Virus record (IMG/VR): IMGVR_UViG_3300011113_000415
Origin: a virus
Lineage: Duplodnaviria; Caudoviricetes
Direction: 5' to 3' (one strand)
DNA: 64,000 nt
How positions within the stretch are numbered: the first letter of the stretch is position 1; each line of letters opens with the position of its first letter. The notes under the pieces were generated by a model. The model was given only the letters and a program-made list of their open reading frames with translations, did not search any database and was not told the origin of the DNA. Shown here in pieces: positions 26,682 to 63,458 of this stretch. Position numbers and translations under genes: made by a program.

Positions 26682-26711
26682 AAAGTAACACTTTTTTGTT
26701 ACCCTAAAAAG

Positions 26712-26729
26712 GTAATACTTTAGTACTAT
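26712..26729. repeat. 18-bp palindromic motif, copy 1
   Basis: GTAATAC-TTTA-GTACTAT; degenerate extra copy at 26685-26702. Confidence 0.7.
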
Positions 26730-26730
26730 A

Positions 26731-26760
26731 AAACCCTGCCATGTGCAGGGTTTTTCTTTT
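26731..26760 (+). terminator. rho-independent terminator
   Basis: AAACCCTGC-CATGT-GCAGGGTTT plus T run. Confidence 0.85.
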
Positions 26761-26762
26761 GG

Positions 26763-26791
26763 TTGACTCGAAATATCCAAAATGTTATAAT
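26763..26791 (+). promoter_or_regulatory. sigma70-type early promoter
   Basis: TTGACT-N17-TATAAT. Confidence 0.85.
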
Positions 26792-26797
26792 CATAAT

Positions 26798-27031
26798 ATG
26801 AAGTTAGAAATCAATGAAATACTACAGTGGACCGGAGCGGTGTTTATCATTGCAGGCCACAGTCTCAATGCTGTGGGTCCTAGTGTGTACCCTTACAACA
26901 TTCTTGCATTTTTCCTAGGAACAATTTTGTTCATGGGCTGGAGCATTCGTGTTGCAAATAAACCACAGTTGATGGTGAACATTGTGGCCCTGTGCATTGG
27001 AGCATCAGGACTAGTAAAAGCATTTGGTTGA
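26798..27031 (+). CDS. small membrane protein
   Basis: three hydrophobic stretches; ATG 6 nt after -10; track start 26741 reads through the promoter. Confidence 0.65.
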   Translation: MKLEINEILQWTGAVFIIAGHSLNAVGPSVYPYNILAFFLGTILFMGWSIRVANKPQLMVNIVALCIGASGLVKAFG

Positions 27032-27056
27032 CTCGAAATAGCCGATTTGCTATAAT
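27028..27056 (+). promoter_or_regulatory. sigma70-type early promoter
   Basis: TTGACT-N17-TATAAT; -35 contains the upstream TGA stop. Confidence 0.85.
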
Positions 27057-27087
27057 ATAGGCATAGTAAGACAAAAAGGAATCCAAA

Positions 27088-27243
27088 ATGAAAGATGAGA
27101 TACTTACAAAGTTGGCAGAAGTTGAAGCCATGCTGTTAGAGGCTACACAAGATGGCCGCCAACTGGCAGAACTAGATTGTTTTAAAGACGTAGAGGATGC
27201 TATGAGCACCCTAATACAAACAGTTGACTATTACGTTGATTGA
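27088..27243 (+). CDS. small acidic early protein (51 aa, not in ORF track)
   Basis: AAGGA RBS; MKDEILTKLAEVEAMLLEA...YYVD. Confidence 0.6.
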   Translation: MKDEILTKLAEVEAMLLEATQDGRQLAELDCFKDVEDAMSTLIQTVDYYVD

Positions 27244-27268
27244 CTCGAAATTACCGATTTGTTATAAT
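27240..27268 (+). promoter_or_regulatory. sigma70-type early promoter
   Basis: TTGACT-N17-TATAAT. Confidence 0.85.
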
Positions 27269-27297
27269 ACTTGTATAGAAACTAACAGGAGCCCACA

Positions 27298-27558
27298 ATG
27301 ACAGAGCAAGAAAACCGTGAAGTCCGTATGTACGGTACCACTGAAGCCGCATTGCGTGAAAGTATTGAGCGTTCAATGACATTCAAAGTCTCTGGGCCTA
27401 CAATGATTGTAGCCGGCATGTTGAGCGATGTACAAGAAATGATGGCATATGGTCCGTATGATAGCGATACACTTGCTAACATCCAGGAAGACCAGCGTCA
27501 ACAACTTAACCGTGCCAAGTGGGTTTTATTTGAATACATGAGCGAGGAAAGAGTATGA
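27298..27558 (+). CDS. hypothetical early protein
   Basis: AGGAG RBS; downstream of promoter. Confidence 0.65.
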   Translation: MTEQENREVRMYGTTEAALRESIERSMTFKVSGPTMIVAGMLSDVQEMMAYGPYDSDTLANIQEDQRQQLNRAKWVLFEYMSEERV

Positions 27559-27704
27559 GCAAAATGAGCGATATCGAAATACAAATCGAAGAACTATTAG
27601 ACCAAGGGCAAACCCCTTTCATGATTGCACAGATGCTGGACATTCCAATTGCATGGGTCTATAGTGTAGAAGAAAATAGCCCTTTTGCAACATCAAACAG
27701 TTGA
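27555..27704 (+). CDS. small early protein, possibly HTH-like (49 aa, not in ORF track)
   Basis: ATGA overlap; GQTPFMIAQMLDIPIAWV resembles a helix-turn-helix. Confidence 0.5.
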   Translation: MSKMSDIEIQIEELLDQGQTPFMIAQMLDIPIAWVYSVEENSPFATSNS

Positions 27705-27729
27705 CCAGAAATTCATTTTCGGTTATAAT
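27701..27729 (+). promoter_or_regulatory. sigma70-type early promoter
   Basis: TTGACC-N17-TATAAT. Confidence 0.85.
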
Positions 27730-27760
27730 ACATTTTTAATTCATCAACTTAGGAGATTTT

Positions 27761-28129
27761 ATGTCTTATTCTTTTGCAGGTACTTCTGTACTAAAAGGTG
27801 AACTCAAAGTTCGTTTTGCTAACTCAGACGCTCGTGCCAAGCAATTGGCCAAACTGGGCGACACTGATGTAAACATTGTTCAGTTGCCACGTGCAATGGA
27901 CAAGGCCGAAGCCGTTGCATACTTGCTAGAGTCTGGCTTTGCCAAAGATGTACTAGTTCGTGCTGTGCTGGAGGCAGAAGTGGCTCCTAAGACCAAAGCC
28001 AAGGCACCTCGTACTGTTCGAGTACGTGCAAAGTCAGTCAAGCCCAAAGCAAAGTCCAAGGTAGATCGCACTGACGCTACTGAAGCCGAAGTAGATGCCT
28101 TGTATGAGGCAGTTTACGGCAACCAGTAA
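27761..28129 (+). CDS. early protein with Lys/Arg-rich tail
   Basis: AGGAG RBS; PKTKAKAPRTVRVRAKSVKPKAK segment. Confidence 0.65.
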   Translation: MSYSFAGTSVLKGELKVRFANSDARAKQLAKLGDTDVNIVQLPRAMDKAEAVAYLLESGFAKDVLVRAVLEAEVAPKTKAKAPRTVRVRAKSVKPKAKSKVDRTDATEAEVDALYEAVYGNQ

Positions 28130-28278
28130 TGATCGTCAACGCCTTTTTTGTTTGGCTCAATTGGCGTATTGCCGATTGGTGCTTTGAAAACAACAGCCCC
28201 GGTTGGGGCTGGGCCAACATCTTTTTCAGTGCCTACAATGGTGCTATAATTGCCTATCAATTGTTTGGTAACATATGA
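28129..28278 (+). CDS. small hydrophobic protein (49 aa, not in ORF track)
   Basis: TAATG coupling; Trp/Phe-rich. Confidence 0.5.
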   Translation: MIVNAFFVWLNWRIADWCFENNSPGWGWANIFFSAYNGAIIAYQLFGNI

Positions 28279-28439
28279 AAATGTCTTTTAGATCTTGGTT
28301 GCAGGAACGCTGGTATGCCCACTGCCTTGAAGTAGAAGAATGGACAGGGCGATTGCCAACTTATCCCATGCAAGAATATTTTGCCAAGTACAAATATTGG
28401 CTCAAACGTGAATATCGTCATCAACAAGGAGAACAGTAA
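28275..28439 (+). CDS. small hypothetical protein (54 aa, not in ORF track)
   Basis: ATGA overlap at start; stop coupled to the next ATG. Confidence 0.55.
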   Translation: MKMSFRSWLQERWYAHCLEVEEWTGRLPTYPMQEYFAKYKYWLKREYRHQQGEQ

Positions 28440-28882
28440 TGGGTCTTGACATGTATGCTTACACTGCCGCTCGCGCAGGCCAACAAAATGAATTCTATGA
28501 AGGCGCGGAGTGGGACGCCGAACGCAAAGAGAGTGTGAATCCTGATGTTGCTAAACCACGTGAAATTGCCTACTGGCGCAAGCATCCTAACCTGCATGGT
28601 TGGATGAAACAACTGTGGGAAGACCGTTTGGCCGCCCAGGGCCGAACGCCGGGTCAAAGCCATTTTGGTAGCACCTTTAATGGTGTTGAATTAGAACTCA
28701 CCAGAGAGGATATAGATGCACTTGAGGCGGATATACTTAAAAAACGACTGCCCTCCACATCGGGTTTTTTCTTTGGCGAAGACGCAGATGATTACTACCG
28801 AGAACAAGATCTTGAATTTGTCAAGAAAGCCCGTACAGAATTGTTTATGGGCTTAAAAGTGTTTTATAACTCGTCATGGTAA
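28439..28882 (+). CDS. conserved-type hypothetical phage protein
   Basis: MGLDMY...YWRKHPNLHGWM...SGFFFG pattern; AAGGAG RBS. Confidence 0.7.
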   Translation: MGLDMYAYTAARAGQQNEFYEGAEWDAERKESVNPDVAKPREIAYWRKHPNLHGWMKQLWEDRLAAQGRTPGQSHFGSTFNGVELELTREDIDALEADILKKRLPSTSGFFFGEDADDYYREQDLEFVKKARTELFMGLKVFYNSSW

Positions 28883-28892
28883 TGCAGTAAAT

Positions 28893-30263
28893 ATGATAGA
28901 CTATACACAAGAAAGGTTCGTGAGAACTGTGAGTTCAGGTTGGATTCGCGATCTTGAATCAAGCGACAGCCGGATTCACAAAGAAAAAACTATCGAAAAG
29001 GCCTTGATGGCCTCTAGGCTGGGTAGTGCCGACGCACAGGCTTTTTTGTTCAACTGCTATCAAGCCTACAATCCTTTCTACACATTCCATGTGAAACAAG
29101 TTCCTGAAGTGTCGGCACAAACAAATCGATCCAATGACTGGCCCAAGTTCTGGGGCTTGTTGGAAAGTTTGCGCACCCGTAGTGTGACAGGTGATGCGGC
29201 TCGACTGGCCATTGAAGAATGCTCCAAGTTGTTTGATACTGATGAATGGAACATGGTATGCCGTCGAGTGATCATTAAAGATCTGCGTTGCGGCATTTCA
29301 GAAAAGACCTTGAACAAAATACTGAGCAATACAGATTGGAAGATTCCGGTGTTTACTTGCCAACTGGCTCAAGACTCCACAGACCAACCTCGCAAACTGC
29401 TAGGTGTCAAACGACTAGAACCCAAATTGGATGGTGTGCGTGTGCTGGCAATGGTACAAGGCATGAACGTGAGTTTGTTCAGTCGCAACGGCAAAGAATT
29501 TGCAAATTTTCCGGAGATTGCTCGAGACATCATGAGACACAGAGATGTGTTTCAACGAAATCTTGGATCCGGTGGCCGCTTTGTGCTGGATGGCGAAGTC
29601 ACCGGAGAAAGTTTCCAGAAACTCATGCGGCAGGCACATCGTAAAAGCGATGCCAAAACCGAGGACATGGTGTACAACATTTTTGACATCATACCCTTGG
29701 ATGACTTTCAACGTGGTTACTGGAATGCACAACAGTACAAACGATTTGAAATTTTGGAACAAGCCTGGGGTCGACTGCAAGACAATCCTTGCAGTTTGAA
29801 AGTGGTCTCAGGCCTGGAAGTGAATTTGGACACAGCAGAAGGTCATGACATCATGCAACGCTATGCTGAAGATTGTGTGGCTGAAGGTTTTGAAGGCATC
29901 ATGATCAAAACTGTGGATGCGCCTTATATCTGCAAACGTTCAGACTATTGGATGAAATGGAAACCGGTTATATCGGTTGATTTGGAAATTGTGGGTTTTG
30001 AACAAGGTACTGGTCGCAATGCCGACCGGTTGGGTGCTATAATTTGTGAAGGAGAAGACAATGACCGTAGAATTCGTGTTAATGTTGGTAGTGGGTTTAG
30101 TGATACTGTTCGTGATGAGTATTGGGCCAATAGGGATCAGTTACTTGGTCACTTGGTTGAAGTCCAAGCGGACGCAGTTACCCAAAACCAAGACGGAACC
30201 TACAGTCTCCGATTCCCAAGGTTCTTGAGATTCCGTGACTTTGAAGCAGGGGAGAAAGTGTGA
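28893..30263 (+). CDS. lig: ATP-dependent DNA ligase
   Basis: motif I EPKLDGVR, LDGE, FDI, EGIMIK, WMKWK, OB-fold VGSG and RFPRF; start may be GTG 28929. Confidence 0.95.
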   Translation: MIDYTQERFVRTVSSGWIRDLESSDSRIHKEKTIEKALMASRLGSADAQAFLFNCYQAYNPFYTFHVKQVPEVSAQTNRSNDWPKFWGLLESLRTRSVTGDAARLAIEECSKLFDTDEWNMVCRRVIIKDLRCGISEKTLNKILSNTDWKIPVFTCQLAQDSTDQPRKLLGVKRLEPKLDGVRVLAMVQGMNVSLFSRNGKEFANFPEIARDIMRHRDVFQRNLGSGGRFVLDGEVTGESFQKLMRQAHRKSDAKTEDMVYNIFDIIPLDDFQRGYWNAQQYKRFEILEQAWGRLQDNPCSLKVVSGLEVNLDTAEGHDIMQRYAEDCVAEGFEGIMIKTVDAPYICKRSDYWMKWKPVISVDLEIVGFEQGTGRNADRLGAIICEGEDNDRRIRVNVGSGFSDTVRDEYWANRDQLLGHLVEVQADAVTQNQDGTYSLRFPRFLRFRDFEAGEKV

Positions 30264-30454
30264 TGACACCTTTACATGATATTGTACTAGTAGCGGTCAT
30301 GGTAGCACATAGTGCTTTTGGCCCGGCACAACTGGAATACCAATCAGTTGATTATTATAATTCTTGGGCTCGATGTAACCAAGAACAAAAACGATTGAGT
30401 CAAAACAAAGATAAAAAAACTGCATATATTTGTCTAAAAGTTGATAGGTCATAA
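30260..30454 (+). CDS. small exported protein
   Basis: hydrophobic N-terminus; two Cys. Confidence 0.5.
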   Translation: MMTPLHDIVLVAVMVAHSAFGPAQLEYQSVDYYNSWARCNQEQKRLSQNKDKKTAYICLKVDRS

Positions 30455-30682
30455 ATGACAGCACAATCAGCCAATGGTGTTCGCGGACATCTACTAAACT
30501 TGATCGACGGAACTGTAGTGTTTCGTGTGTATGATGCTGAACACAACTTTGTGGACTATGATCTGCATCACAGTGATTTGTGTGTGACCATCGACGATCC
30601 TGATGCATATTTTTATCATCGGGATGGTCAGGACATACTGGATCATGCTCCTATGACATTAGGAATTGAAAATGATACTTGA
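30455..30682 (+). CDS. hypothetical phage protein
   Basis: abuts previous stop. Confidence 0.6.
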   Translation: MTAQSANGVRGHLLNLIDGTVVFRVYDAEHNFVDYDLHHSDLCVTIDDPDAYFYHRDGQDILDHAPMTLGIENDT

Positions 30683-30787
30683 AATATTTTTAGCAGGAAT
30701 GATCACTGCCTTTGGGTGGTGGACCAGCACACACTATATTATTGAACCTTATTTTCCACCACCCATTGAAAAGAAAGTGGAACAAAA

Positions 30788-31228
30788 ATGAAAATCGGAC
30801 TCAGTTACAGTCGTTGTGTTCGTGACATTGTGGACGGTACAGTAGACATCGATGATGTTCTTGTATTAATCACTCGTACAGATTTTGATCCGCATGATGA
30901 CAAGCAATGGTCGGGCATTTGGATTGGTTACGGCGGTGGCACGGACAATGGATACACTACAGGATTCTTTAGTCAGAGCAATCCTGAATGGGCTGGTTAC
31001 CACGACGAAGACCGTTTCCGTAGTGTCAGTATCGAACTTTGGGAAACAGGTAAGTTGCACCAACCACGTAAGTTTGGTGTAAAGCCTGCTCGTCGTCCTG
31101 AAATATGGTTGGAAACTGTGTTACCTGATTCAGAGATGATGAATCGTCCCGCAGTGAAAGATGCCTGGGACCAGTTCCAGACCATTGCAGGTTTGACCAA
31201 CACCAAACTGGATCGAGAATACAGATGA
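30788..31228 (+). CDS. hypothetical phage protein
   Basis: MKIGLSYSRCVRDIV start; in operon. Confidence 0.65.
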   Translation: MKIGLSYSRCVRDIVDGTVDIDDVLVLITRTDFDPHDDKQWSGIWIGYGGGTDNGYTTGFFSQSNPEWAGYHDEDRFRSVSIELWETGKLHQPRKFGVKPARRPEIWLETVLPDSEMMNRPAVKDAWDQFQTIAGLTNTKLDREYR

Positions 31229-31240
31229 AGGAGAACAAGA

Positions 31241-32476
31241 GTGCCTAAAAAACCCAAAACAGCAAAAGTAGAAACTGTAAATCCTGAGCATGACAAACTC
31301 CTGGAGGTGCTAAAGTTTACTCCACGTACCTACAAGATCAGCATGTGGGGTTATGGTGGCGAAAAAGTCATGGGCACAGTGGATAAGAAAGTTTGGGACT
31401 ACTGCATGGAGCATCAAGTTGACTTGTCTGACATTGCCTGGGGCGATGAAGATACAGTTACGAGCATGGGTCTTGATCCTGACATGTTGCCATTCTCTGC
31501 AGGGTCATGGTATGAGTGTGACGACCTAGCGCACACCAATGGTGTAAGTCGCGATGCTGGCACATTAGAAATTCAAGACGAGCATGGCAATACAGTTTTC
31601 CAGAGAAGTCTAGAAGATTGTAACAACGACGACGAAGATAACCCGGAGTGGTCATGTAGTGACGAAGTATGGGTTGGTCGAGCCGAAGCAGGTAAGGTTG
31701 TGTTTGTTGGTAGCAGTAACGAAAAAGGCACATTCTATGAGTCGGATGTTGAACTTCGACAACCATTTGATATTACCAAATTAACACTATGCTACGAAGA
31801 AATCGACGGTGAAGAAATTGTCAATGGTGTAATATACGATGGCGAAGAACTTGACAACTGGGGTGGTAGCACAGATGGTAAGAGTTCAGACTTTACCATG
31901 TGTTTGGTCAAAGAAAATGGCGAGTGGGATCGTTACGAACCAGAAGAAAAAGACTGGGGTCATCCTCCACATGGTACTAGTCCAAGTACCTGGGAAAGTT
32001 CACCCAAGTTTGTGTTTAAAAAACAAAAACCTACCATACCAGGTTACTATAGTGTGAACTGGGGCGGTGGCAGTACATATGGTAGTCTGTATTGGAACGG
32101 AGAAGCATTTGGCGAATGGGAATACGGCAAGTTTAATCCAGTAAGACAAGAGGGTGTAAAAACTTGGAGTGGTTACAACTGGGATACCAGCAGTTGGGTC
32201 AATCAACCTCCTGAACCAGCGGACGTCATGTGCGACAATAAAAAATGTGGCTGGGTTGGTCGAAGTGAAGATCGTCGAGAGGATGATGACTACAACGACC
32301 ATTGTCCTGCGTGTGATGGCACATCATTTACCTGGATTGATTACGACCCTAACACCAAAGAAGGTCGTAAAAATCGTGATAAGTATTGTTTAAAGTGGGA
32401 TCCGGTAGTGGCACTAGAAAGAATTGTGGCACCGGTGGATGATACACAGGCCAAATGGCCAACTAATAGACCTTAA
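31241..32476 (+). CDS. acidic multi-domain hypothetical protein with Zn-ribbon
   Basis: AAGGAG RBS and GTG start; CDNKKC...CPAC near the C-terminus. Confidence 0.6.
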   Translation: MPKKPKTAKVETVNPEHDKLLEVLKFTPRTYKISMWGYGGEKVMGTVDKKVWDYCMEHQVDLSDIAWGDEDTVTSMGLDPDMLPFSAGSWYECDDLAHTNGVSRDAGTLEIQDEHGNTVFQRSLEDCNNDDEDNPEWSCSDEVWVGRAEAGKVVFVGSSNEKGTFYESDVELRQPFDITKLTLCYEEIDGEEIVNGVIYDGEELDNWGGSTDGKSSDFTMCLVKENGEWDRYEPEEKDWGHPPHGTSPSTWESSPKFVFKKQKPTIPGYYSVNWGGGSTYGSLYWNGEAFGEWEYGKFNPVRQEGVKTWSGYNWDTSSWVNQPPEPADVMCDNKKCGWVGRSEDRREDDDYNDHCPACDGTSFTWIDYDPNTKEGRKNRDKYCLKWDPVVALERIVAPVDDTQAKWPTNRP

Positions 32477-32487
32477 AGGAGAAAACT

Positions 32488-33171
32488 ATGTTTACTACAA
32501 CTTATAACGATACTTATCGTTCGGCAGAAGAAATCAATACTGCCATGGGCCGTGTTTACGGACACATGAGTCTAGCAGTGCTTGTGTCAATGCTTGTGAG
32601 TTACTTGGTAGGTTCTAGTCCAGAGTTGCTACAGTTCTTTTTTACTGGCGTAATGAAATGGATTGTGATCTTTGCACCCTTGGCGGCCATATTTGGTGTG
32701 AGCATGGTGCTGGGCAACAATCCAAGTAAACCAGTAGCACAGTTATGCCTACACGGCTTTGCGGCATTGATGGGACTGAGTTTCTCAATGATCTTTGCTG
32801 TGTTTGCCATGGGATCGATTGTGAGTGCCTTCATGGGGTCAGCCATCTTGTTTGGTGTCATGAGTGGCTATGGATACTTTACCAAACGCAGTCTTGAGAG
32901 TATGGGACAGTTTATGTTTATTGGTTTGATCGCCATCTGTATTGCCAGTATTGTGAACATCTTTATTGGCAGCACCGTGATGCAGATGGTGATCTCCGCA
33001 TTGGCTATCATTATCTTCTTGGGCCTTACTGCCTATGACACACAACAGATCCGCGAAGAACTCATGTACGAAACCAGCGATGCCGCGGAAGTGCGTGGTG
33101 CGCTAACGTTGTACATGGACTTTATCAACTTGTTCTTGAATTTGTTACAACTGTTCGGAGATAGGAAATAA
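32488..33171 (+). CDS. yccA: Bax inhibitor-1/YccA family membrane protein
   Basis: seven hydrophobic segments; AYDTQQI and GALTLYMDFINLF motifs. Confidence 0.88.
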   Translation: MFTTTYNDTYRSAEEINTAMGRVYGHMSLAVLVSMLVSYLVGSSPELLQFFFTGVMKWIVIFAPLAAIFGVSMVLGNNPSKPVAQLCLHGFAALMGLSFSMIFAVFAMGSIVSAFMGSAILFGVMSGYGYFTKRSLESMGQFMFIGLIAICIASIVNIFIGSTVMQMVISALAIIIFLGLTAYDTQQIREELMYETSDAAEVRGALTLYMDFINLFLNLLQLFGDRK

Positions 33172-33173
33172 TC

Positions 33174-33557
33174 ATGGCAACTTGGGTACTAACAACACTG
33201 GAAAAGAAAAACGTCGTAGAGACTGAGTTCTGGAGCAAGGACGGAAAAACTATCAAACGCAGTACCGGCTTTCGTTGGGGCACAGTCTATTGTGAAAGCG
33301 ATGAACGGCCTGATATTGATTTAGAGAATCCTGATGGATTAGACGTATTCAATACTGACTATGACTTTGAACTAGACAACCTAGATGATGGTTGCTGGGT
33401 AGACGTTGAATATCCTGAAGACATGAGCGAAGAAGAACAAGAACGCATGGATGAACTCTGGGAAGAAGAAGGTTACGATGCCTGGGAAGGCGAAGGCTGG
33501 TCAAACGATGACACAGAGACTTGGTTCAATGGACCATTGGGATTGGAGGAGCAATGA
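33174..33557 (+). CDS. highly acidic hypothetical protein
   Basis: about 30% Asp/Glu by hand count. Confidence 0.65.
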   Translation: MATWVLTTLEKKNVVETEFWSKDGKTIKRSTGFRWGTVYCESDERPDIDLENPDGLDVFNTDYDFELDNLDDGCWVDVEYPEDMSEEEQERMDELWEEEGYDAWEGEGWSNDDTETWFNGPLGLEEQ

Positions 33558-33874
33558 AAACACTAAATGAAGTTTGGGCACTTGCGGAATCTTTAAACGA
33601 AGAAGCACACTCTGATGCATGGGATAGTTGGATAGCCGCCGATGAGATGGAAGAGTCGGAAGAAGATGAAGATGGCACTTCAGCAGAACAACTGCGCGAA
33701 GAAGCCAGTGATGAACAGGCTGGCTACTTTCGAGACTATTACTGGGATCTAAACGCGGAAGATCAAACAGCAATCAAGCATTGGCTTAAAGAGGATGAAT
33801 CGTTTCGAGATCAGTTTAGTACTTGGTTTGGCTACGATGCATTTGAAGAAGAGTTTGACGTAGAAGACAAATAA
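33554..33874 (+). CDS. highly acidic hypothetical protein
   Basis: GGAGG RBS and ATGA overlap give start 33554; about one third Asp/Glu. Confidence 0.65.
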   Translation: MKTLNEVWALAESLNEEAHSDAWDSWIAADEMEESEEDEDGTSAEQLREEASDEQAGYFRDYYWDLNAEDQTAIKHWLKEDESFRDQFSTWFGYDAFEEEFDVEDK

Positions 33875-33878
33875 ATTA

Positions 33879-33908
33879 TTGACACAGCCACCACTTTCCT
33901 TGTATAAT
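33879..33908 (+). promoter_or_regulatory. sigma70-type promoter
   Basis: TTGACA-N18-TATAAT. Confidence 0.75.
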
Positions 33909-33914
33909 GTCTAT

Positions 33915-34080: not shown

Positions 34081-34108
34081 TTGGAAATCACAGTGAAAGG
34101 AACGTTAA

Positions 34109-51300: not shown

Positions 51301-51576
51301 ATGTTTACAGCAGACGCAATTATCGACACAGTTCAAACTGGTAAAAAAACCATTGTTAACACATTCGTCACAAACGAATCAGTTAAAGAAGCAATGATCA
51401 AGTTCATTGACACACAAGCAGACTATACCAAAAAAGCCACCAAGGTTGGTATGGATACCATGACCACAATTTCAAGCGAATTGGTCAAGCAGATGGAAGC
51501 CGCGGCAAAATTTGATTATGCCAAAGCCGGCCAGGAGTTTTTAAAGCCATTCCAGCCAGCAACTTCTAAAAAGTAA
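51301..51576 (+). CDS. phasin-like amphipathic helical protein
   Basis: 91 aa, all-helical amphipathic pattern, no Cys/Trp; family call is tentative. Confidence 0.4.
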   Translation: MFTADAIIDTVQTGKKTIVNTFVTNESVKEAMIKFIDTQADYTKKATKVGMDTMTTISSELVKQMEAAAKFDYAKAGQEFLKPFQPATSKK

Positions 51577-51590
51577 TACCTTAGTATTAC
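51573..51590. repeat. 18-bp palindromic motif, copy 2
   Basis: GTAATAC-CTTA-GTATTAC; contains the upstream TAA stop. Confidence 0.8.
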
Positions 51591-51597
51591 CATTTGC

Positions 51598-51624
51598 AAG
51601 CCCTGTTCAATGCAGGGCTTTCTC
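51598..51624 (+). terminator. terminator-like hairpin
   Basis: AAGCCCTG-loop-CAGGGCTT followed by TCTC. Confidence 0.7.
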
Positions 51625-51653
51625 TTGACCAATAAAGGTCATTCTGCTATACT
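51625..51653 (+). promoter_or_regulatory. sigma70-type early promoter
   Basis: TTGACC-N17-TATACT. Confidence 0.8.
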
Positions 51654-51659: not shown

Positions 51660-51896
51660 ATGAGATACTTAATACCGTTGATGGTTGTGATAGCAGGCTG
51701 TGCCAATGTTCGCCCACCTGTGGACGTCACGCTCATACCCAATGACTGTGCCAACCAAACTGCTATTGTCAACTGGTTGGAAGAACAAAGTAAAATCTCT
51801 CCTTCAACGTTTTCAGACAAGGATCAATATGCGAGACACCGTGCCTCGATTCGCCAGCGTGTATGGAATATGCGTTATACTTGCAATCCTGTGTAA
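51660..51896 (+). CDS. lipoprotein
   Basis: lipobox IAGC; ATG 6 nt after -10. Confidence 0.7.
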   Translation: MRYLIPLMVVIAGCANVRPPVDVTLIPNDCANQTAIVNWLEEQSKISPSTFSDKDQYARHRASIRQRVWNMRYTCNPV

Positions 51897-55983: not shown

Positions 55984-57015
55984 ATGAATGTCACAATACC
56001 CATAGAAGTCAGCGGAGATATATGGTACAACGAGCAGGCAGTACGACAACAGTTACAAGAGTTAGACGGTTCCACCACGATAACACTAGATCTACGCAGT
56101 GAAGGACCCAGCCTGCATCGCCTGGGTATAGTGGCTGTGATAGATGCTTGGCTAACCCAACACAGTTTGCCTGCGGACACTGTCACAGTCACACGGTGGA
56201 GTAATGCTGTAGAAACAGTTGATTATAAAAAATACCAGTGTAGTGTACCCAGCCACTTTTGGTACTTTGCCCAACAATATCAACGGCCACCGGCACACAA
56301 TTTTGATGGCCCAAGGTCTCAATTGTTTGGCATGTTCTTGGGGCGGGCCACAATACATCGCAATGTAATTCTATACGAAGTATCACAAAGATGGCTAGAT
56401 AGATTTTTAATCAGTCGATTGCCAGCATTCACGCCCGAAGGAACACCTGTGCCAGAACCCTGGCACATAAAAAACATCATGGAATGGCGTCTTCCAGAAA
56501 AACTAGAGGATTGGACATCGACTCCGCAATCTATTGTTGATTGGTTTGATTGTCAAACATTTGCCAGTTTGGATTCTAGAACAGTTAGAGATCAGTATGG
56601 GGACCCGTACAATCATTTTGTACACAACAGCAGTATATTAGAACACTATGATAAGTTTTCAATAGAACTTGTGTGCGAAAGTTACACGCTTGGCCAAACC
56701 TTTTTCCCCACCGAAAAAACTGCCAGACCCATAGCAGGAACTCGACCCTGGTTGATATATGCGGCATCGGGCTATATTCAAAATTTACGTCGCATGGGTT
56801 TTCGCAGTTTTGATTCATTATGGGATGAATCATACGATCAACTGGAAGGACCTGGTAGATGGCGGGCCATGAAAAAAGTAATACAAAATTTGATTGATTT
56901 AGATGCTAGTACATTATATGATGTATTGGTACAAGCACATAAAATTGCCATACATAATCACATGCATCTTGACAATATCAATCCTAACATGAAGATTCAA
57001 TTTCAATTTCAATGA
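55984..57015 (+). CDS. putative glycosyltransferase-like protein (TEKT family)
   Basis: VCES..FPTEKTARPI..GFRSF..WDESYD. Confidence 0.5.
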   Translation: MNVTIPIEVSGDIWYNEQAVRQQLQELDGSTTITLDLRSEGPSLHRLGIVAVIDAWLTQHSLPADTVTVTRWSNAVETVDYKKYQCSVPSHFWYFAQQYQRPPAHNFDGPRSQLFGMFLGRATIHRNVILYEVSQRWLDRFLISRLPAFTPEGTPVPEPWHIKNIMEWRLPEKLEDWTSTPQSIVDWFDCQTFASLDSRTVRDQYGDPYNHFVHNSSILEHYDKFSIELVCESYTLGQTFFPTEKTARPIAGTRPWLIYAASGYIQNLRRMGFRSFDSLWDESYDQLEGPGRWRAMKKVIQNLIDLDASTLYDVLVQAHKIAIHNHMHLDNINPNMKIQFQFQ

Positions 57016-58001
57016 TAACAAAAACATTTGATCAAGGTTGGGGCCAACAATGGCCACTCAAACAATTTGAACAAAGTGTGGTGCAAGATGCGATAAAATA
57101 TTTTGCGGCCAGCAACCAACGTGTGGTCATTATCAACAGCGTATGGTATTCACAGCAGGTGCATGAACAAGTCATGGCATGGTTACGCAACAACGATTGG
57201 GATCAAATTGTGCTGGTGGCCATGTTAGATGCTGCCATACCCCGTGCTGATCAATATGCAGAATTTGACCGTCCTATAACAGGTATAGGCTATTATCCAG
57301 GCGCAGGAAAGGTTGACTTTTGTGCCATGTTTGTTGATCATTTTTTCCAACCACCAGACCAGGACGTTTTACAAAATGCCAGCACTATCGACACTGCCTA
57401 CATGTGTTTGAATCGCAAACCTCATTGGCATAGAAAACAATTGTATGCAAGATTACAGGCGGCAAATCTACTAGACAAAGGTATTGTGAGCATGGGAGGT
57501 GATGGTAAAGCAGTAAAGGCATTGACACAAGACCGTGACCATGACAATTTGGCTCCCAATGCCACACGAGATCACTATGGCATTCCCAACGACATTGTGA
57601 GTCTGGGTCATCCGGGCAATTGGTCTAGACATTTGGTAAACATAGTTACTGAAACCTTTTATGATATCAATCACACAGGATTTGTGAGTGAAAAAATCTA
57701 CAAACCCATTGTGGGGTGCAGACCGTTTTTGGTCTATGATCCTGATGGCGGTACAAAGTGGTTGCAGGATCGAGGGTTTGAACCTTACACGCAAGACTTC
57801 AGCGACATTTCGGATCTAGATCTAGCCTTGCCGCATAACATACCACGATTTCTCAGTGTGCTGTGTGAACAAACTCCTGCTTATTGGCAGAAGAAATTTG
57901 TTGACTTGCAGGAAAAAATCCAGTACAATAAGGCTCATTTTGCTGATTACGTTGCTCAGCAGAACCACATAGTCAAACAAGGAATACCATGCCCAATTTA
58001 G
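57012..58001 (+). CDS. putative glycosyltransferase-like protein (TEKT family)
   Basis: [28 protein letters not shown]. Confidence 0.5.
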
Positions 58002-58585
58002 TGCCAATCGTGCTTGAACAAACAGCCAAAGGCGAACGCAGTTACGACATCTACAGTCGCTTGTTAAAAGACCGTGTGATCATGCTGGACACAGAAGTGT
58101 CAGAACACACAGCCAGTCTGTTGGTGGCACAGATGCTGTTTTTGGAAAGTGAAAACCCAGACAAAGACATAGCCTTGTATATCAATTCGCCAGGCGGAAG
58201 TGTAACAGCAGGCATGGCCATCTATGACACTATGCAGTTTATCAAATGTGATGTGCAAACCATTGTGATGGGTCAGGCCTGCTCCATGGGATCATTGTTG
58301 GCACAAGCAGGTGTCGCAGGCAAGCGCATGATCTTGCCCCATGCTAGACACATGATTCACCAACCTTCGGGTGGTGCTTCAGGCCAGGCCACAGACATTC
58401 AAATTCAAGCCCGTGAGATTCAAAAAATGAAACAGTATCTAACTGAAATCTATGTGCAACACAATACGGCCGGTAAAGACTTTGAAGTTTTAAGTGCAGA
58501 CATGGAACGTGATTTTTTCATGAGTGCTCAAGAAGCCGTGGACTATGGACTGGCGGACAGGATTATTGCAAAACGTGACCTCTAA
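57989..58585 (+). CDS. clpP: ATP-dependent Clp protease proteolytic subunit
   Basis: [44 protein letters not shown]. Confidence 0.96.
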
Positions 58586-59846
58586 CTTACAAAAATATTT
58601 TTGCCCAAGTCCTTGGTTTCACATGCGTATCTTTAATGATGGTGGTATGAATTACTGTCGTTGGGCTGTTAAAGATCAAATACAAACAAACATGCGAGAT
58701 GTTGATCCCAAAATTTTTTTCCAGCAACACATGGAGCACATTAGAACCAGTATGTTACAAGGACATGCTGTTTTGGGTTGCAAAAAATGCTATCAAATGG
58801 ATCAACATCACAAGATCAGTGGCAGACAAAAACAGTTATTGAAAATTGGTGTGCGCACGGAGCATTTTGAAAAATCATTGGCCAGCAGTCCTTGGGTCAA
58901 TACATTTCGATCAGAAAAATTTACACAACTACCGCAAGACTGGCAAATTGATTTGGGAAACTTTTGCAATAGTGCTTGTGTATTTTGCAATCCAAGTGCC
59001 AGTTCGAGACTGGCAAGCGAATGGAAGCAAATTGGTTTCATTGATAAATTGCCCAATGCCAATTGGACTGACGATCCAGAACTGGTGGACAGATTTTTGG
59101 TTATGCTTGAGGCAAGTGCTAACATTCAGTATCTACATTTTATTGGTGGGGAAACACTGATTACTCCTGCTTTTCATACCATTTTAAAAGCATTGATAAA
59201 ATCGGGTCTGAATCGTACTGCTACAATTGGATTCACTACAAATTTAATATCTTGGAATCAACAGGTAGTTGATTTACTGAAACAATTTGCAGGTGTAAAT
59301 CTTGGTATGAGCATTGAAACATTTGATAATATTAATGATTATGTGCGTTGGCCAGCCACAATGTCAAAAATTTATGAAATTCTGGAAAAATGGCTATCAA
59401 TTGCCAAGTCCCACAATTGGCTCATGCAGTTTCGTACCACTCCCACTGTATTGACTATACATAATTTGTTGAGCGTCTACAAATATGCTTGGGACAGGTC
59501 AATTGCTATTGAAAGTTGCGATTTTCTAAATGAACCTGCATTCATGCGCCCATCAGTTTTGCCCATGCTGTATCGAGAACCAATCATTAAATCAATGACT
59601 GCATGGATTGATAAACACAACGCCAGTGATCCACTTATTGTTAATACTCGTAATCCTGGTGTAGCACAACAACAAATAGTGCAAGATTTGCAAAGTTATG
59701 TTAACTATTTACAAACCCAACCAGATGAAAGTTGTAGATTACCAGATCTTGTTTCGTATCTAAAACGACTTGAAAGCAATCGTGGCAATAGCATTTTAAG
59801 TTATCTACCGCAATATGAAGAACTTTTCAGAACTGCTGGCTACTGA
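58524..59846 (+). CDS. radical SAM protein with N-terminal SPASM/Twitch-like region
   Basis: [27 protein letters not shown]; true start is likely slightly downstream. Confidence 0.85.
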
Positions 59847-60063
59847 CCTAAAATTAACCATTCAAGTAAATGGCTGTATCAGAGTGTGTGATTTGCATGA
59901 GCCTTTGTGCTTTAACCATGACGACCATGTGTTAATTGATGGCATTGAAGTTTTGCCAAGATACAGTCACCTAGTAATCAATGGTACTTTACGAATATCT
60001 GCGCCATTTTATCAATGGCTTCACCATGCGTCAGATCAAGGTTGGTTGCTGTTGCCACATTAG
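59815..60063 (+). CDS. hypothetical protein
   Basis: overlaps the radical SAM stop. Confidence 0.5.
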   Translation: MKNFSELLATDLKLTIQVNGCIRVCDLHEPLCFNHDDHVLIDGIEVLPRYSHLVINGTLRISAPFYQWLHHASDQGWLLLPH

Positions 60064-60155
60064 TACATGCCATAACCACGACGTTTGGTCATTTGATAAC
60101 GATACTCGCCTACTGCTTTGAAAAATTTCCAAATTGCGCCAAAAACTTTTTTCAT
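60060..60155 (-). CDS. small amphipathic peptide (31 aa, not in ORF track)
   Basis: MKKVFGAIWKFFKAVGEYRY...; ATGA-coupled to the upstream minus-strand ORF. Confidence 0.5.
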   Translation of the reverse strand: MKKVFGAIWKFFKAVGEYRYQMTKRRGYGMY

Positions 60156-60316
60156 AGATAAACCCCCTGCTTGTTTTTTTGATGATATTCACGTTCATAA
60201 TATTCCACGTCGGCGGCTGACTTGGGATATCGGCTGGAGATGTAGCGTTCTAAACGGGATTGATAATTCTGTCGGGGAAACATCTCAGCCAACCTTTTTA
60301 ATATTTCTGCTAACAT
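60152..60316 (-). CDS. small protein, DUF3563-like (54 aa, not in ORF track)
   Basis: AAGGAG RBS and TAAATA upstream; QSRLERYISS...ADVEYYER pattern; family call from recall. Confidence 0.55.
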   Translation of the reverse strand: MLAEILKRLAEMFPRQNYQSRLERYISSRYPKSAADVEYYEREYHQKNKQGVYL

Positions 60317-60375
60317 AATGGTTTCTCCTTCTCAGTATTTACCACGAGATATCAGTGATTGTACAAATTTTTTAC

Positions 60376-60399
60376 AAATTAGTACATGAGTACTAATTT
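60376..60399. repeat. palindromic motif, copy 3
   Basis: AAATTAGTAC-ATGA-GTACTAATTT. Confidence 0.8.
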
Positions 60400-60405
60400 T
60401 ATAGT

Positions 60406-60435
60406 TTGACCAAAAAATACTCAAAGTGTTATAAT
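60406..60435 (+). promoter_or_regulatory. sigma70-type early promoter
   Basis: TTGACC-N18-TATAAT. Confidence 0.75.
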
Positions 60436-60469
60436 GTAGATATCGATAGTACACCTAAGGTATTCAACA

Positions 60470-61684
60470 ATGAAAATTTGGTCTATATGTGTATGTTTAG
60501 CATTAGTGGCATGCGGAGGAGGTGGAGGAAGTGGCGGGTCAGGAACTCCTGCAAATTCAGCGTCCTTAGGAACCAGGGTGATTAATCAAACTTCTGGTGT
60601 GCATAAGAATACGGTTAAAAATTATGCGGTAGGCGATCTCAATAATGACGGACTGGATGATGTGGTTATAGGAGGATGGAGCGGCACCGGAACATCATAT
60701 TTGGCCTTACTAATACAAAATTCAGACGGAACACTTGTTGATAAAACAACAGAGTTATTAGCAAGCAACACATACCCGGGCAGTGGTCATATTTTTATTT
60801 GGGATTTTGATAACGATGGCCGTGCAGATATTTGGCTGCCAGGCGCTGATGATCATGTTGCTAGTTCTAATAGTGTAATGCTTTGGGGCAGTGGCACCGG
60901 AACCTTTAGTCCACAAATTTTTCCAGAATCAATGGCCAGTGCAGGCGCTTGTGTTTTTGATATCAACAACGACGGTCGTATGGATATGTTGGTGAGAGGT
61001 ACCTATGTGCAGGCAATCAATACTTATGGATATTATCTAAATAACGGAAACAGAACTTTTACATTTGTTGCTGACCAATACGTTAATGGTGCAAGTGCGT
61101 GTGCTGTAATCCGTGATTCTGCCACTGGCCATTTGGCTGTAATGCAAGGAGGCAATAACCAGGCCAGCACTTCAGATACAATTAGCATTGTAGATGCTAA
61201 TCTTAATTTAATTAAGTTAATAGCCATGCCCAAACAAGATTCTAATTTGGCAGGTATGATAGGAGCGACCACAGCGGATGTCAACAACGATGGACTGTTA
61301 GATTTTATCATTGTGTATGAGTCTTATGTGCCAGGATCTCCAGGTCGTAAAGAAGTTTGGTTAAATCAAGGCACAGATAACTTTGAATATGCTTATGCTG
61401 TAGATACCACATACAATAGTACAGGCGATATTGTAAACTTTCGGTATCAAGGTGTTCAATACTGTTTCTTTGATGGTCCCAATGGAGATGCAACATTATA
61501 TCAATTGGCCAATGCCTCGTTGAGTTTATATAAACATGAAGATTTTTTAAGTATGGGTCGATTGTTAGGTGGTAAACCGGACGTCAAAGATTGGAGTATA
61601 ATGAGTGCTACAGTATATCGTGGCAGTAAGGGAATTTACATGCTTCAAGATATCAATGGTACACTCTATACTCAGAAACTTTGA
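60470..61684 (+). CDS. FG-GAP/VCBS repeat lipoprotein
   Basis: lipobox LVAC, Gly/Ser linker, repeats GDLNNDGLDD, DFDNDGRAD, DINNDGRMD, DVNNDGLLD. Confidence 0.85.
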   Translation: MKIWSICVCLALVACGGGGGSGGSGTPANSASLGTRVINQTSGVHKNTVKNYAVGDLNNDGLDDVVIGGWSGTGTSYLALLIQNSDGTLVDKTTELLASNTYPGSGHIFIWDFDNDGRADIWLPGADDHVASSNSVMLWGSGTGTFSPQIFPESMASAGACVFDINNDGRMDMLVRGTYVQAINTYGYYLNNGNRTFTFVADQYVNGASACAVIRDSATGHLAVMQGGNNQASTSDTISIVDANLNLIKLIAMPKQDSNLAGMIGATTADVNNDGLLDFIIVYESYVPGSPGRKEVWLNQGTDNFEYAYAVDTTYNSTGDIVNFRYQGVQYCFFDGPNGDATLYQLANASLSLYKHEDFLSMGRLLGGKPDVKDWSIMSATVYRGSKGIYMLQDINGTLYTQKL

Positions 61685-61747
61685 TCAACTGCGTTGACAA
61701 ATCAATGAAACCTGTGCTAAATTGTTGTAAAATTTGAAAGGATTATC

Positions 61748-61972
61748 ATGAACAATTGGGACCGAGGAAATTTGGACTTTATTTTAAATTCCACCGAGGA
61801 AGACCTAGCAGACTTTTTGTCCTGGGCCACAGATGAAGACCTAGCGTATGCACTGGAACTGCTTCAAACAGCCCGTGCAGAACTCACAACCAAGGAACTT
61901 GAACTGCTAGACAGCGAAACAGTAGAAGATCTATCACAAGCAAGAGCCATACTAGAAAGATTTCGTCTATGA
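61748..61972 (+). CDS. small acidic hypothetical protein
   Basis: AAAGGA RBS. Confidence 0.6.
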   Translation: MNNWDRGNLDFILNSTEEDLADFLSWATDEDLAYALELLQTARAELTTKELELLDSETVEDLSQARAILERFRL

Positions 61973-63042
61973 AAATACGACTGATAGGCAAACGCAACAA
62001 TTTGGGTATTGGTACCCATTTTGCCGCTTTTGCAGACGCCCTCAAGCGAATCAGCCACTGGGGTGCCTGTGTTGAAGAGTTTGATTGCGAGGATCCTGCA
62101 AGACTTCAAGCAGAGGCTCAGGTCAGCAAGTCCGGTGACATCAACATCTGCTTTGTAAGCATACCCTTGCAGGATCATTTTCAGGGCACCAATATTCAAT
62201 GGGTGGTGTTTGAAAGTACTCTAGTGCCGCCCACAGTGATGAGCACCATGATAACCGCAGATCAAGTGTGGGTGCCCAGTTCATGGGGACGACACACATT
62301 GATCGCCAACGGACTGGACCCGGCACGTTGTGAGATCATACCAGAAGGTGTTGATGCTGATCAGTATCATCCTTATGCACCCAGAGTTGACAGTCCGGTC
62401 ATGACCTATCTAATTACTGGCAAGTACGAACTGCGGAAAAGTATCATTGAAACTGTGCTGGCCTGGAGCCAAGAGTTTGGTAATGATCCTGATGTGGAAC
62501 TGGTGATCAAGACCAATCACTTTTGGCACCAAGAAGCCAAGTACAACGAACTGGCCAACTACATTGGTCAACTGGGCTTGACCAATGTGCGAGTGATCTG
62601 GGGTAGCACTGCTCCTGAAGACATGGTCAATCTCTATCAGCAGAGTCATGTGTTTGTGTTGCCCACCAAAGGTGAAGGTTGGGGACTGCCACTTATCGAA
62701 GCCGCGGCTGTGGGTCTACCCATTATCACAACCTGGCACAGTGCTCACACAGAATTTTTACAACACATACAATCCAGTGTGGTGGTAGTGGAGCATGATA
62801 TGACTCCAGTCAACTGTCAAGAGTATCAGTTGTTTTATCCCACAACAGATGGCAATTGGGGTTCCTGGGCACAACCCAGAATTGACAGCATTAGGGCGGC
62901 CTTGAGATCCAGTCGTCAAAATTACACATACCTGCACCGAAGAGCCAAAGAAAATAGTGTGATCATACGCCGGACATTTTCCTGGGCCCAAAGTGCTGAT
63001 CGTGCCCTGCAAACCCTGCAAAAGCATGGGTTACTAAAGTAA
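61969..63042 (+). CDS. GT4-family glycosyltransferase
   Basis: VWVPSSW, IPEGVD, RKS, GEGWGLPLIEAAAVGLP. Confidence 0.85.
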   Translation: MKIRLIGKRNNLGIGTHFAAFADALKRISHWGACVEEFDCEDPARLQAEAQVSKSGDINICFVSIPLQDHFQGTNIQWVVFESTLVPPTVMSTMITADQVWVPSSWGRHTLIANGLDPARCEIIPEGVDADQYHPYAPRVDSPVMTYLITGKYELRKSIIETVLAWSQEFGNDPDVELVIKTNHFWHQEAKYNELANYIGQLGLTNVRVIWGSTAPEDMVNLYQQSHVFVLPTKGEGWGLPLIEAAAVGLPIITTWHSAHTEFLQHIQSSVVVVEHDMTPVNCQEYQLFYPTTDGNWGSWAQPRIDSIRAALRSSRQNYTYLHRRAKENSVIIRRTFSWAQSADRALQTLQKHGLLK

Positions 63043-63056
63043 TACTCTAGTACTAC
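63039..63056. repeat. 18-bp palindromic motif, copy 4
   Basis: GTAATAC-TCTA-GTACTAC; contains the upstream TAA stop. Confidence 0.8.
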
Positions 63057-63062
63057 TTTTTG

Positions 63063-63087
63063 ACCCTGAAAAGATCAGGGTTATTTT
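63063..63087 (+). terminator. terminator-like hairpin
   Basis: ACCCTGA-loop-TCAGGGT followed by TATTTT. Confidence 0.7.
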
Positions 63088-63089
63088 GG

Positions 63090-63118
63090 TTGACTCAAAA
63101 TCGTCCATTTGCTATAAT
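63090..63118 (+). promoter_or_regulatory. sigma70-type early promoter
   Basis: TTGACT-N17-TATAAT. Confidence 0.85.
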
Positions 63119-63148
63119 AATGACATGTTAAGCAAAAAGGAGTTCCAA

Positions 63149-63400
63149 ATGCGTCATGTATCAGGTTTTAGTAATAGCACAAAGATTCGCTATATCGTCA
63201 ACGGTTTTGGCATGTACGGCACCATCAACGACATCTATACAAAAACAGCCACGGTGAGTCATGGTGAGGCTCTACGCCTTGCAATCCAAAAATTGGCTTA
63301 CGATCGCCGTCACAGTAGTTTCAAGGACGAAGGTCGTCCAGTTGGTGTCAGCATCACTCACGAAGGCATTCAAGTGCAGATTGATTTGATGGCCAACTGA
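63149..63400 (+). CDS. hypothetical early protein
   Basis: AAGGAG RBS gives start 63149. Confidence 0.65.
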   Translation: MRHVSGFSNSTKIRYIVNGFGMYGTINDIYTKTATVSHGEALRLAIQKLAYDRRHSSFKDEGRPVGVSITHEGIQVQIDLMAN

Positions 63401-63402
63401 AA

Positions 63403-63420
63403 GTAATACTTGAGTATTAC
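63403..63420. repeat. 18-bp palindromic motif, copy 5
   Basis: GTAATAC-TTGA-GTATTAC. Confidence 0.85.
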
Positions 63421-63429
63421 ATTTTTTGG

Positions 63430-63458
63430 TTGACCCAAAATTACCCATTTGTTATAAT
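63430..63458 (+). promoter_or_regulatory. sigma70-type early promoter
   Basis: TTGACC-N17-TATAAT. Confidence 0.85.

Follow-up and report, generated by a model that had tools for sequence, protein, structure and literature searches.

Five copies of an 18-bp palindrome in the window

The window analyzed here is a 64,000-nucleotide (64-kb) stretch of DNA from the IMG/VR virus record IMGVR_UViG_3300011113_000415 (Duplodnaviria; Caudoviricetes), and the element of interest is an AT-rich 18-bp palindrome that stands ahead of an early promoter at five places within it. Genes for a DnaB-type helicase, a ribonucleotide reductase, an ATP-dependent ligase and radical-SAM enzymes are among those of the window, and the + strand carries almost all of them. 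As a 16-mer pattern, TARTAC-NNNA-GTAYTA, the element occurs exactly five times, at 26713, 51574, 60380, 63040 and 63404; the full 18-mer starts 1 nt earlier, at 26712, 51573, 60379, 63039 and 63403. These five copies had been reported in a first-pass annotation of the sequence, which also raised the prospect that they might occur at chance frequency. Chance does not account for them: 100 dinucleotide-preserving shuffles of the window gave 0.00 pattern matches. Allowing one mismatch adds 0 sites in the window, compared with 0.30 expected.

All five copies lie upstream of a σ70-type promoter of the form TTGAC(C/T)-N17/18-TATAAT or TATACT, with a TG extension in most. The gap from the 18-mer to the promoter is 9 nt at 60379 and 63403 and 33–34 nt at 26712, 51573 and 63039, and each of the three long gaps contains a CCCTG...CAGGG hairpin followed by a T run (26734–26750, 51600–51618 and 63064–63080). 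At two of the copies, the TAA within the palindrome is the stop codon of the upstream open reading frame (ORF), 51301–51576 in one case and 61969–63042 in the other. The first-pass annotation was correct on the promoters (at 26763, 51625, 60406, 63090 and 63430), the three hairpins and the two internal stop codons. The features are as follows.

26685–26702, no strand assigned: AT-rich inverted repeat GTAACA-N6-TGTTAC, centered 27 bp upstream of copy 1 and overlapping the intergenic tail end of ORF 26139–26681
26712–26729, no strand assigned: 18-bp dyad, copy 1, with one mismatch to GTARTACTNNAGTAYTAC; heads an array of one-gene early cassettes
26734–26750, + strand: terminator-like GC hairpin and T run between copy 1 and its promoter
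26763–26791, + strand: early σ70-type promoter, TTGACT-N17-TATAAT with TG extension
51573–51590, no strand assigned: 18-bp dyad, copy 2; TAA at 51574–51576 is the stop codon of the conserved 91-residue gene 51301–51576
51600–51618, + strand: terminator-like GC hairpin and T run of the copy 2 cassette
51625–51653, + strand: early promoter, TTGACC-N17-TATACT with TG extension; drives a 78-residue ORF with a lipoprotein-type signal
60379–60396, no strand assigned: 18-bp dyad, copy 3, with T/A in place of the outer G/C; a leftward gene start on one side and a rightward early promoter on the other
60406–60435, + strand: early promoter, TTGACC-N18-TATAAT; drives a 404-residue ORF with a lipoprotein-type signal
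63039–63056, no strand assigned: 18-bp dyad, copy 4, perfect; TAA at 63040–63042 is the stop codon of the glycosyltransferase ORF 61969–63042
63064–63080, + strand: terminator-like GC hairpin and T run of the copy 4 cassette
63090–63118, + strand: early promoter, TTGACT-N17-TATAAT
63403–63420, no strand assigned: 18-bp dyad, copy 5, perfect; starts 3 nt past the TGA stop of the preceding small ORF, with its TAA in frame as a second stop
63430–63458, + strand: early promoter, TTGACC-N17-TATAAT; drives the 91-residue ORF 63489–63764

A sixth, degenerate copy had been proposed at 26685. The small inverted repeat at 26685–26702 is real, but 5 of its 16 specified positions are off consensus, which makes "related AT-rich hairpin" the better description. 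A true tandem pair of palindromes, 28 bp apart, is found in the relative L203 at the place equivalent to copy 1. Another AT-rich palindrome, resembling TTGTTG-N8-CAACAA, recurs in the distant relative G008, where it separates the 18-bp element from the promoter (L328:15508–15530), and upstream of some early promoters of G006 (near 193020 and 329470); the repeat at 26685 in the window may be related to it.

Source phage and probable host

The window has no close counterpart at the DNA level among INPHARED phages searched with megablast. Pseudomonas phage PA5oct has a helicase with 47% identity to that of the window, jumbo phages of Agrobacterium and Vibrio have similar ones, and IMG/VR contains hundreds of helicase relatives at 86–96% identity. 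The DNA sequencing runs that contain the stretch are lake and river metagenomes, and the PstS protein of the phage clusters with those of Pseudomonadota. From the gene content, the helicase relatives, the metagenome origin and the PstS grouping, the window is assigned to a freshwater jumbo phage that is abundant and uncultured and that probably infects a proteobacterium. PA5oct, the nearest cultured relative, has 0 exact copies of the palindrome.

Conservation of the element across the clade

The palindrome is broadly conserved beyond the window. Nine of ten related contigs of 47–374 kb contain 1–9 exact copies each, with 2–9 in each of the related genomes of 250–374 kb, and the same pattern read backwards as a control has 0 matches in the related contigs. 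With up to two mismatches, 4, 5, 10 and 10 sites were found in the window and three near-complete relatives, compared with 0–1 in reversed-sequence controls; related genomes of ~340 kb have 4–10 copies each. A scan of IMG/VR relatives for the palindrome together with GGTTGAC, supplemented with other loci, brought the number of distinct palindrome-plus-promoter instances to at least 153. The element was absent as an exact copy from 777 kb of helicase-gene flanks of 80 relatives.

Among the matches listed, positions unconstrained by the search are fixed all the same: the preceding G in 87%, T7 in 84%, A10 in 96% and the following C in 88%. The full unit is for this reason an 18-bp dyad, GTAATACT-NN-AGTAYTAC. 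AAAAA usually precedes it, and TTTTT often follows in copies of the short-gap class. When no more than one mismatch is allowed, each site in the window, G006, G007 and G008 is found either at the end of a gene or in an intergenic spacer that adjoins promoter elements, and G007 and G008 retain the element despite having promoters with different –35 boxes or none. Dyad symmetry is thus accompanied by sequence conservation across diverged genomes, as would be expected of an operator. Conservation is also seen locally, since copy 3 (60379) has been kept in the relative L289 while the surrounding spacer diverged.

The clearest series involves the gene that ends in copy 2. In 13 distinct orthologous loci of gene 51301–51576, down to 46% protein identity, AAAAAG-TAATAC-N4-GTAYTA-C is present at the stop codon. 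What follows it is not constant: the terminator stems are unrelated in sequence, the downstream genes differ, the promoters vary (TTGACC, TTGCTC or an extended –10 only), and the distance from palindrome to promoter ranges from ~33 to ~85 nt. That the element is kept while the other parts of the cassette change is not expected if whole cassettes evolve in concert, and argues for constraint from a conserved trans-acting factor. The 91-residue protein itself is conserved clade-wide (46–100% identity in 17 sequences), and palindrome and terminator always follow its gene.

Placement relative to promoters and gene ends

Distances to the promoter were compared in two sets of instances, one conditioned on the presence of a promoter, with gaps measured from the 16-mer, and one without this condition, with gaps measured from the 18-mer. 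Among the matches listed in the promoter-conditioned set, the gaps are bimodal, at 10–12 and 32–37 nt. The unconditioned set gives gaps of 0–2 nt (n = 4), 7–12 nt (n = 16), 28–38 nt (n = 30) and 18–89 nt (n = 21); a further 24 sites have no promoter call, some of them being chance matches in unrelated phages. A gap-0 copy is present in L215, and in G008 the element is separated by an AT-rich hairpin and a terminator from promoters lacking a –35 box. The two fixed distances of the first-pass annotation therefore describe the window and are the two commonest architectures in relatives, but they are not a rule: the positional bias to promoters that it had predicted is real, and it comes with a tail of longer gaps.

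The short-class element lies at about –61 to –46 of the promoter, and the long class corresponds to the short class with an inserted terminator of ~23 nt. Strict helical phasing was considered and rejected, as the gap classes differ by ~10 nt and ~23 nt.

The opposite side of the element is as regular. In 80 of 135 instances (59%), the TAA of the element is the upstream stop codon, and in 20 further instances of the 135 a stop codon lies 6–7 nt before it, so that the element is anchored to the upstream stop codon at least as tightly as to the promoter. It is not merely a 3′-end signal, however, because copy 3 at 60379 has no upstream gene end. Promoters that are packed in arrays, in which the TGA of the –35 box is the stop codon of the previous gene, do not have the element. 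At 26763–27760 of the window, four one-gene early cassettes form an array with near-identical promoters at 26763, 27028, 27240 and 27701; only the first has the palindrome, and the later ones have no spacer, with the –35 box overlapping the end of the previous gene.

Cassette boundaries and gene shuffling

In the 58–64 kb region, the cassettes are the main DNA similarity of the window to distant relatives, and the ORFs that flank or follow them belong to no Pfam or PHROG family. A comparison of gene content beside the copies, which the first-pass annotation had suggested, shows that genes have been moved or replaced among relatives; the changing genes downstream of 51301–51576 are one such series. 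L274 is without the copy 3 cassette and its 404-residue gene. L215 has an additional cassette that starts precisely at the stop codon of its version of the gene following copy 5; the window has an overlapping start and stop there, and the boundary of the L215 cassette falls exactly on the first base of the element. The orphan 91-residue gene after copy 5 (63489–63764) is located directly upstream of the ligase region, ~35 kb away, in L215, L244, L255, L257 and L285. This gene is a clear case of a cassette gene at a different genomic position.

Homology blocks end internally within the five palindrome cassettes 33 times, compared with 4.9 expected (7-fold), and at four palindrome-free early promoters 13 times, compared with 2.1 expected; both figures are subject to the caveats that many of the loci were collected by way of the cassette itself and that intergenic DNA diverges fastest anyway. 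The breakpoints are found on either side of the element and inside promoters, not at one position. Because the palindrome-free promoters are about equally enriched, shuffling is a property of the promoter cassettes, and the palindrome is not singled out as the point of exchange. The earlier view of the palindrome as a marker of module boundaries is upheld to the extent that the cassettes, their orphan genes and the synteny breaks coincide, but not as something that distinguishes it from promoters lacking the element.

A related observation comes from the DNA contigs of four runs, whose joints were checked. In one lake-water run, contigs connect position 59846 with 60322 and position 60345 with 63422, with matching sides of just 22–24 nt. 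This is a hint, too weak to count, of a co-occurring strain in which the radical-SAM gene is not followed by small ORFs and the three cassettes from between copies 3 and 5 are missing.

Composite cassettes of this type have been described in T4-type phages as promoter-early stem-loop (PeSL) cassettes, in which a stop codon, a stem-loop and a σ70 promoter form a unit that mediates the shuffling of orphan genes (Arbiol et al. 2010, PMC2839356; Comeau et al. 2014, PMC4122927). The likeness is extensive. As in PeSLs, the intergenic cassette begins with the upstream stop codon in an A/T-rich stretch and ends with the ribosome-binding site (RBS) and start codon of an orphan gene. A near-consensus, predicted early σ70-like promoter lies between them, with an adjacent stem-loop predicted to terminate transcription in three of the five window copies. 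The cassettes are repeated many times per genome, and they coincide with insertions, deletions and replacements between relatives, as shown by the 7-fold enrichment of block ends and by L215, L274 and the 51301–51576 series. By analogy, the palindrome cassettes appear to behave like T4-type PeSL cassettes flanking orphan genes. They differ in one component. PeSL stem-loops are defined by structure (G-run/C-run or A3–4G3...C3T3–4) and are variable in place, and no sequence-fixed 18-bp AT-rich palindrome separate from the terminator has been described for them. Here, only some cassettes have the palindrome, which is conserved even between genomes with different promoters.

Such shuffling could explain the palindrome without any protein that reads it. 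As a passive linker, it would be one more stretch of the repeated cassette sequence, comparable to the AT-rich stop region of T4-type PeSLs, and would be kept similar by frequent homologous recombination or gene conversion between cassettes, its sole contribution being homology and a ready-made stop codon for module exchange. The cassettes as the main similarity of diverged relatives at 58–64 kb, the block ends concentrated within them, the copy 5 gene that sits beside the ligase region in relatives, the L215 cassette that starts at the stop of that gene, the differing genes downstream of 51301–51576 and the orphan character of the flanking genes are all consistent with this explanation, as is the description of PeSL cassettes as starting with an upstream stop codon and an AT-rich stretch (PMC2839356). 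Concerted evolution should, however, homogenize copies within a genome and let them drift between genomes, whereas the palindrome is the same in G006, G007 and G008 and it is the promoter boxes and terminators that vary, both between and within genomes. Homology, moreover, needs no palindromic symmetry, and breaks are as enriched at promoters without the palindrome. We consider a passive linker unlikely, although it deserves to be kept in view.

Symmetry and folding of the element

The 18-mer folds weakly, with a mean of –3.0 kcal/mol for the sense strand and –4.3 kcal/mol for the antisense strand, compared with a mean of –12.8 kcal/mol for the neighboring terminators (64 long-class instances in relatives). 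Only one arm position varies freely, and it does so as R/Y. Read in the direction of the promoter, the 153 matches listed have A/T in 75 cases, A/C in 57, G/C in 16 and G/T in 5; the sense strand would therefore carry an A·C mismatch in the middle of a six-pair stem in 57 of these 153 matches. At the orthologous sites after gene 51301–51576, the right-arm base is T or C about evenly and the left arm is fixed at A. The central tetranucleotide is found in both orientations (TCAA 46 and TTGA 32 among the matches listed), and GTANTAC units paired at 11-bp spacing number 3–7 pairs per sequence, compared with 0 in controls. The A·C mismatches, the center in both orientations and the paired GTANTAC units fit a two-fold symmetric protein that reads duplex DNA and accepts either purine. 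The GTANTAC 7-mer does not itself qualify as the basic unit, as single units are not enriched and only pairs 11 bp apart are; solitary AAAGTA-N-TACTTT palindromes are rare.

A sense-strand RNA hairpin or terminator can be rejected on the weak fold, the frequent A·C mismatch and the T/C flips at orthologous sites. An intrinsic terminator is a stable GC-rich hairpin followed by a U run, and the element has a weak fold, A·C mismatches and, in the long class, no U run. The bottom strand is a different matter, since A/C becomes a G·T wobble there and a bottom-strand hairpin is possibly compatible with the arm variation.

This leads to a broader structural explanation in which the element acts as a hairpin or cruciform, extruded or transcribed. 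With its A and T tracts it could attenuate or terminate transcription weakly in both directions, or it could form a bottom-strand hairpin that an enzyme recognizes. Short promoter hairpins can extrude from supercoiled DNA in phage N4. The flanking A run and the C plus T run of the short class extend the pairing to as much as 13 bp, one short-class example reaching –10.3 kcal/mol with a class mean of –6 to –7 kcal/mol. The frequent A/C combination is a G·U or G·T wobble on the bottom strand, and the combination that mismatches there occurs in just 5 of the 153 matches listed. Yet the structure is far weaker than the adjoining terminators, whose stems vary freely in sequence within the same cassettes while the element does not. 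In the long class it would also be redundant, with an intrinsic terminator directly after it, and a bottom-strand RNA has no obvious source when nearly all genes are on the + strand. A structural role of this sort is, in our judgment, rather improbable.

A candidate operator for a dimeric factor

The reading that we favor, tentatively and at a little below even chances, is that the element, which forms the upstream edge of PeSL-like cassettes, is a duplex-DNA site for a putative dimeric factor. The factor would be a protein of two-fold symmetry, encoded by the phage or by the host, that reads the element as double-stranded DNA; the composite cassettes are made up of a stop codon, an optional terminator and a strong early promoter. 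In the short class, the bound protein would cover about –61 to –46, and at gaps of 0–1 nt it would abut the –35 box. Both positions would place it where the T-rich upstream element and the α C-terminal domains of RNA polymerase operate. At a long-class element, the protein would be bound immediately before the intrinsic terminator. Its most likely job would be to gate about one in ten early promoters, mostly those that open transcription units, through repression (shut-off), through a block of read-through from the upstream unit, or both.

Several observations weigh against this proposal. Members of the family stand at varying distances from the promoter, from 0 to ~90 nt with preferred gaps of 0–1, 8–12 and 28–38 nt, which is unusual for a classical activator or steric repressor, and the ~23 nt between the short and long classes is not a whole number of helical turns and puts them out of phase. 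Only a minority of early promoters have the element (4–6 of ~45 in G006), and cassettes with a terminator and promoter exist without the palindrome. The arms differ in base use (left A in 86% and right T in 52% of the matches listed), although a perfectly symmetric reader predicts no such difference. Use of the TAA as a stop codon explains the left-arm preference in part but not wholly, because A is found in 92% of copies when the TAA is a stop and in 79% otherwise. The counts are not independent either, as closely related contigs contributed many of the copies collected. Finally, a cognate binder was not found among the families profiled in five relatives; a novel protein or a host protein could fill this role.

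Of the earlier proposal of an operator for a dimeric regulator, then, the site itself holds up as non-random, dyad-symmetric, tied to promoters and conserved in the clade, but no regulator of the families profiled is conserved in the five relatives. We infer that an operator is the best reading of the element.

Search for a partner protein

The five related genomes were searched with profiles of a few families. HTH_3, GntR, RHH_1 and HU, among the few families tried, gave nothing conserved; ParB_N gave sub-threshold matches only, in two of the five, and DUF6551 none in any of the five. A ParB/KorB-type system, with the element as a parS-like centromere-operator, was rejected because no ParB-family protein is conserved in these relatives. 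The 91-residue protein encoded by 51301–51576 was also considered as a binder resembling HU or TF1 and rejected, since its HU matches are of 15 bits and Phasin_2 matches are equally weak. Its AlphaFold model predicts three helices and no beta arms at a pLDDT (predicted local distance difference test score) of 71, and a profile search of Protein Data Bank sequences with this protein gave nothing significant.

Phage_integrase (tyrosine recombinase) and Y1_Tnp profiles each matched 0 of the five genomes, and on this ground an integron-like, IS200-like or REP-RAYT recombination site was rejected. This bears on the recombination or insertion site proposed by the first-pass annotation: breaks do occur in the cassettes, but no integrase or Y1 (HUH) transposase accompanies them in these relatives. 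The underlying idea is that a site-specific nuclease or recombinase would act on the element, as on attC, homing-endonuclease or REP/RAYT sites, and drive the gain and loss of cassettes. Many attC sites likewise lie at gene 3′ ends with a stop codon inside, and the element lies at gene 3′ ends with the stop inside in 59% of instances. Its wobble is compatible with the bottom strand, orphan-gene cassettes lie on both sides of it, and the L215 boundary is on its first base. The breakpoints on either side of the element and inside promoters are not what a fixed cleavage site would leave. The most far-reaching version is an integron-like cassette system in a lytic jumbo phage, in which a novel phage recombinase or nuclease would mark transcription-unit boundaries and promote the exchange of orphan cassettes. 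The stop codon inside the site, the bottom-strand-compatible variation and the one boundary at the first base are reasons to keep this version open. What disfavors it is that the five genomes lack the recombinase families profiled and that breakpoints are equally enriched where a promoter has no palindrome. We regard both the general idea and this version of it as very unlikely.

The LexA boxes of Pseudomonas, Agrobacterium and Vibrio hosts differ from the cyanobacterial box. The cyanobacterial consensus is RGTACNNNDGTWCB, or AGTACWNWTGTACT (PMC3091678). A conserved host regulator box, for example of the LexA type, that ties early and accessory genes to the state of the host is the least probable explanation: the element does outlast changes of phage promoter type, as a site dictated by the host might, and its minority G/C variants read AGTAC-N4-GTACT, with the half-sites and 4-bp spacing of the cyanobacterial box (PMC3091678), but most copies read AATAC...GTATT (left arm AATAC in 86% of the matches listed), an A rather than the conserved T precedes the right-hand GTA in 96% of the matches listed, and PstS groups with Pseudomonadota and the helicase with Pseudomonas, Agrobacterium and Vibrio phages, which makes a proteobacterial host probable. 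The cyanobacterial LexA box was rejected accordingly as a candidate, in agreement with the first-pass annotation, which had found no match to LexA boxes.

Comparison with known systems and significance

The KorB OB sites of RK2, the p4 sites of φ29 and the TF1 sites of SPO1 are short dyads, present in ~5–15 copies per replicon at several distances upstream of strong σ70-type promoters. The element resembles these operators in its dyad form, copy number and varied promoter distances. It differs in that its sequence is unrelated and that no ParB/KorB-type, HU-type or other DNA-binding protein of the families profiled is conserved in the five relatives. Repetitive extragenic palindromic (REP) sequences and bacterial interspersed mosaic elements (BIMEs) are also sequence-conserved palindromes at gene 3′ ends and in intergenic regions, but are longer, GC-rich and form stable hairpins. 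The element shares their scattered positions at gene ends and between genes; it is, in contrast, 18 bp long, AT-rich and weakly folding, and no RAYT/Y1 transposase was found in the five related genomes. Searches of the literature for the motif in several spellings found no paper with it.

Lake and river metagenomes are rich in this clade, which accounts for hundreds of contigs in IMG/VR. A dyad site at the heads of early transcription units provides a handle for finding a regulator, by pull-down or protein–DNA co-folding, and makes it possible to annotate the transcription units of uncultured jumbo phages. It also carries the PeSL view of promoter/terminator cassettes as sites of shuffling beyond T4-type phages, to a distant group of jumbo phages, and adds a separate conserved component that is absent from the PeSL papers. 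Were the site to drive cassette exchange, it would represent a new mechanism of phage genome plasticity.

Genes next to the cassettes

Two of the ORFs downstream of palindrome cassettes, 51660–51896 and 60470–61684, have predicted lipoprotein-type signals, in which a hydrophobic run ends in ..AGC or ..VAC. The 404-residue ORF 60470–61684 also contains, by sequence, repeated D-x-N-N-D-G-like motifs of the type common in FG-GAP/VCBS calcium-binding repeats. On the other side of copy 3, at 60325–60350, the conserved sequence GTATTTACC, which reads GGTAAATAC on the other strand, stands ahead of a gene start that points leftward (RBS and ATG in reverse complement). The other-strand reading resembles the TAAATA box of T4-late-type promoters, and the sequence is common to L289, L274 and G006 (near 223260). 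Because this TAAATA-like box precedes the adjacent leftward gene start, copy 3 is placed in a divergent late/early control region.

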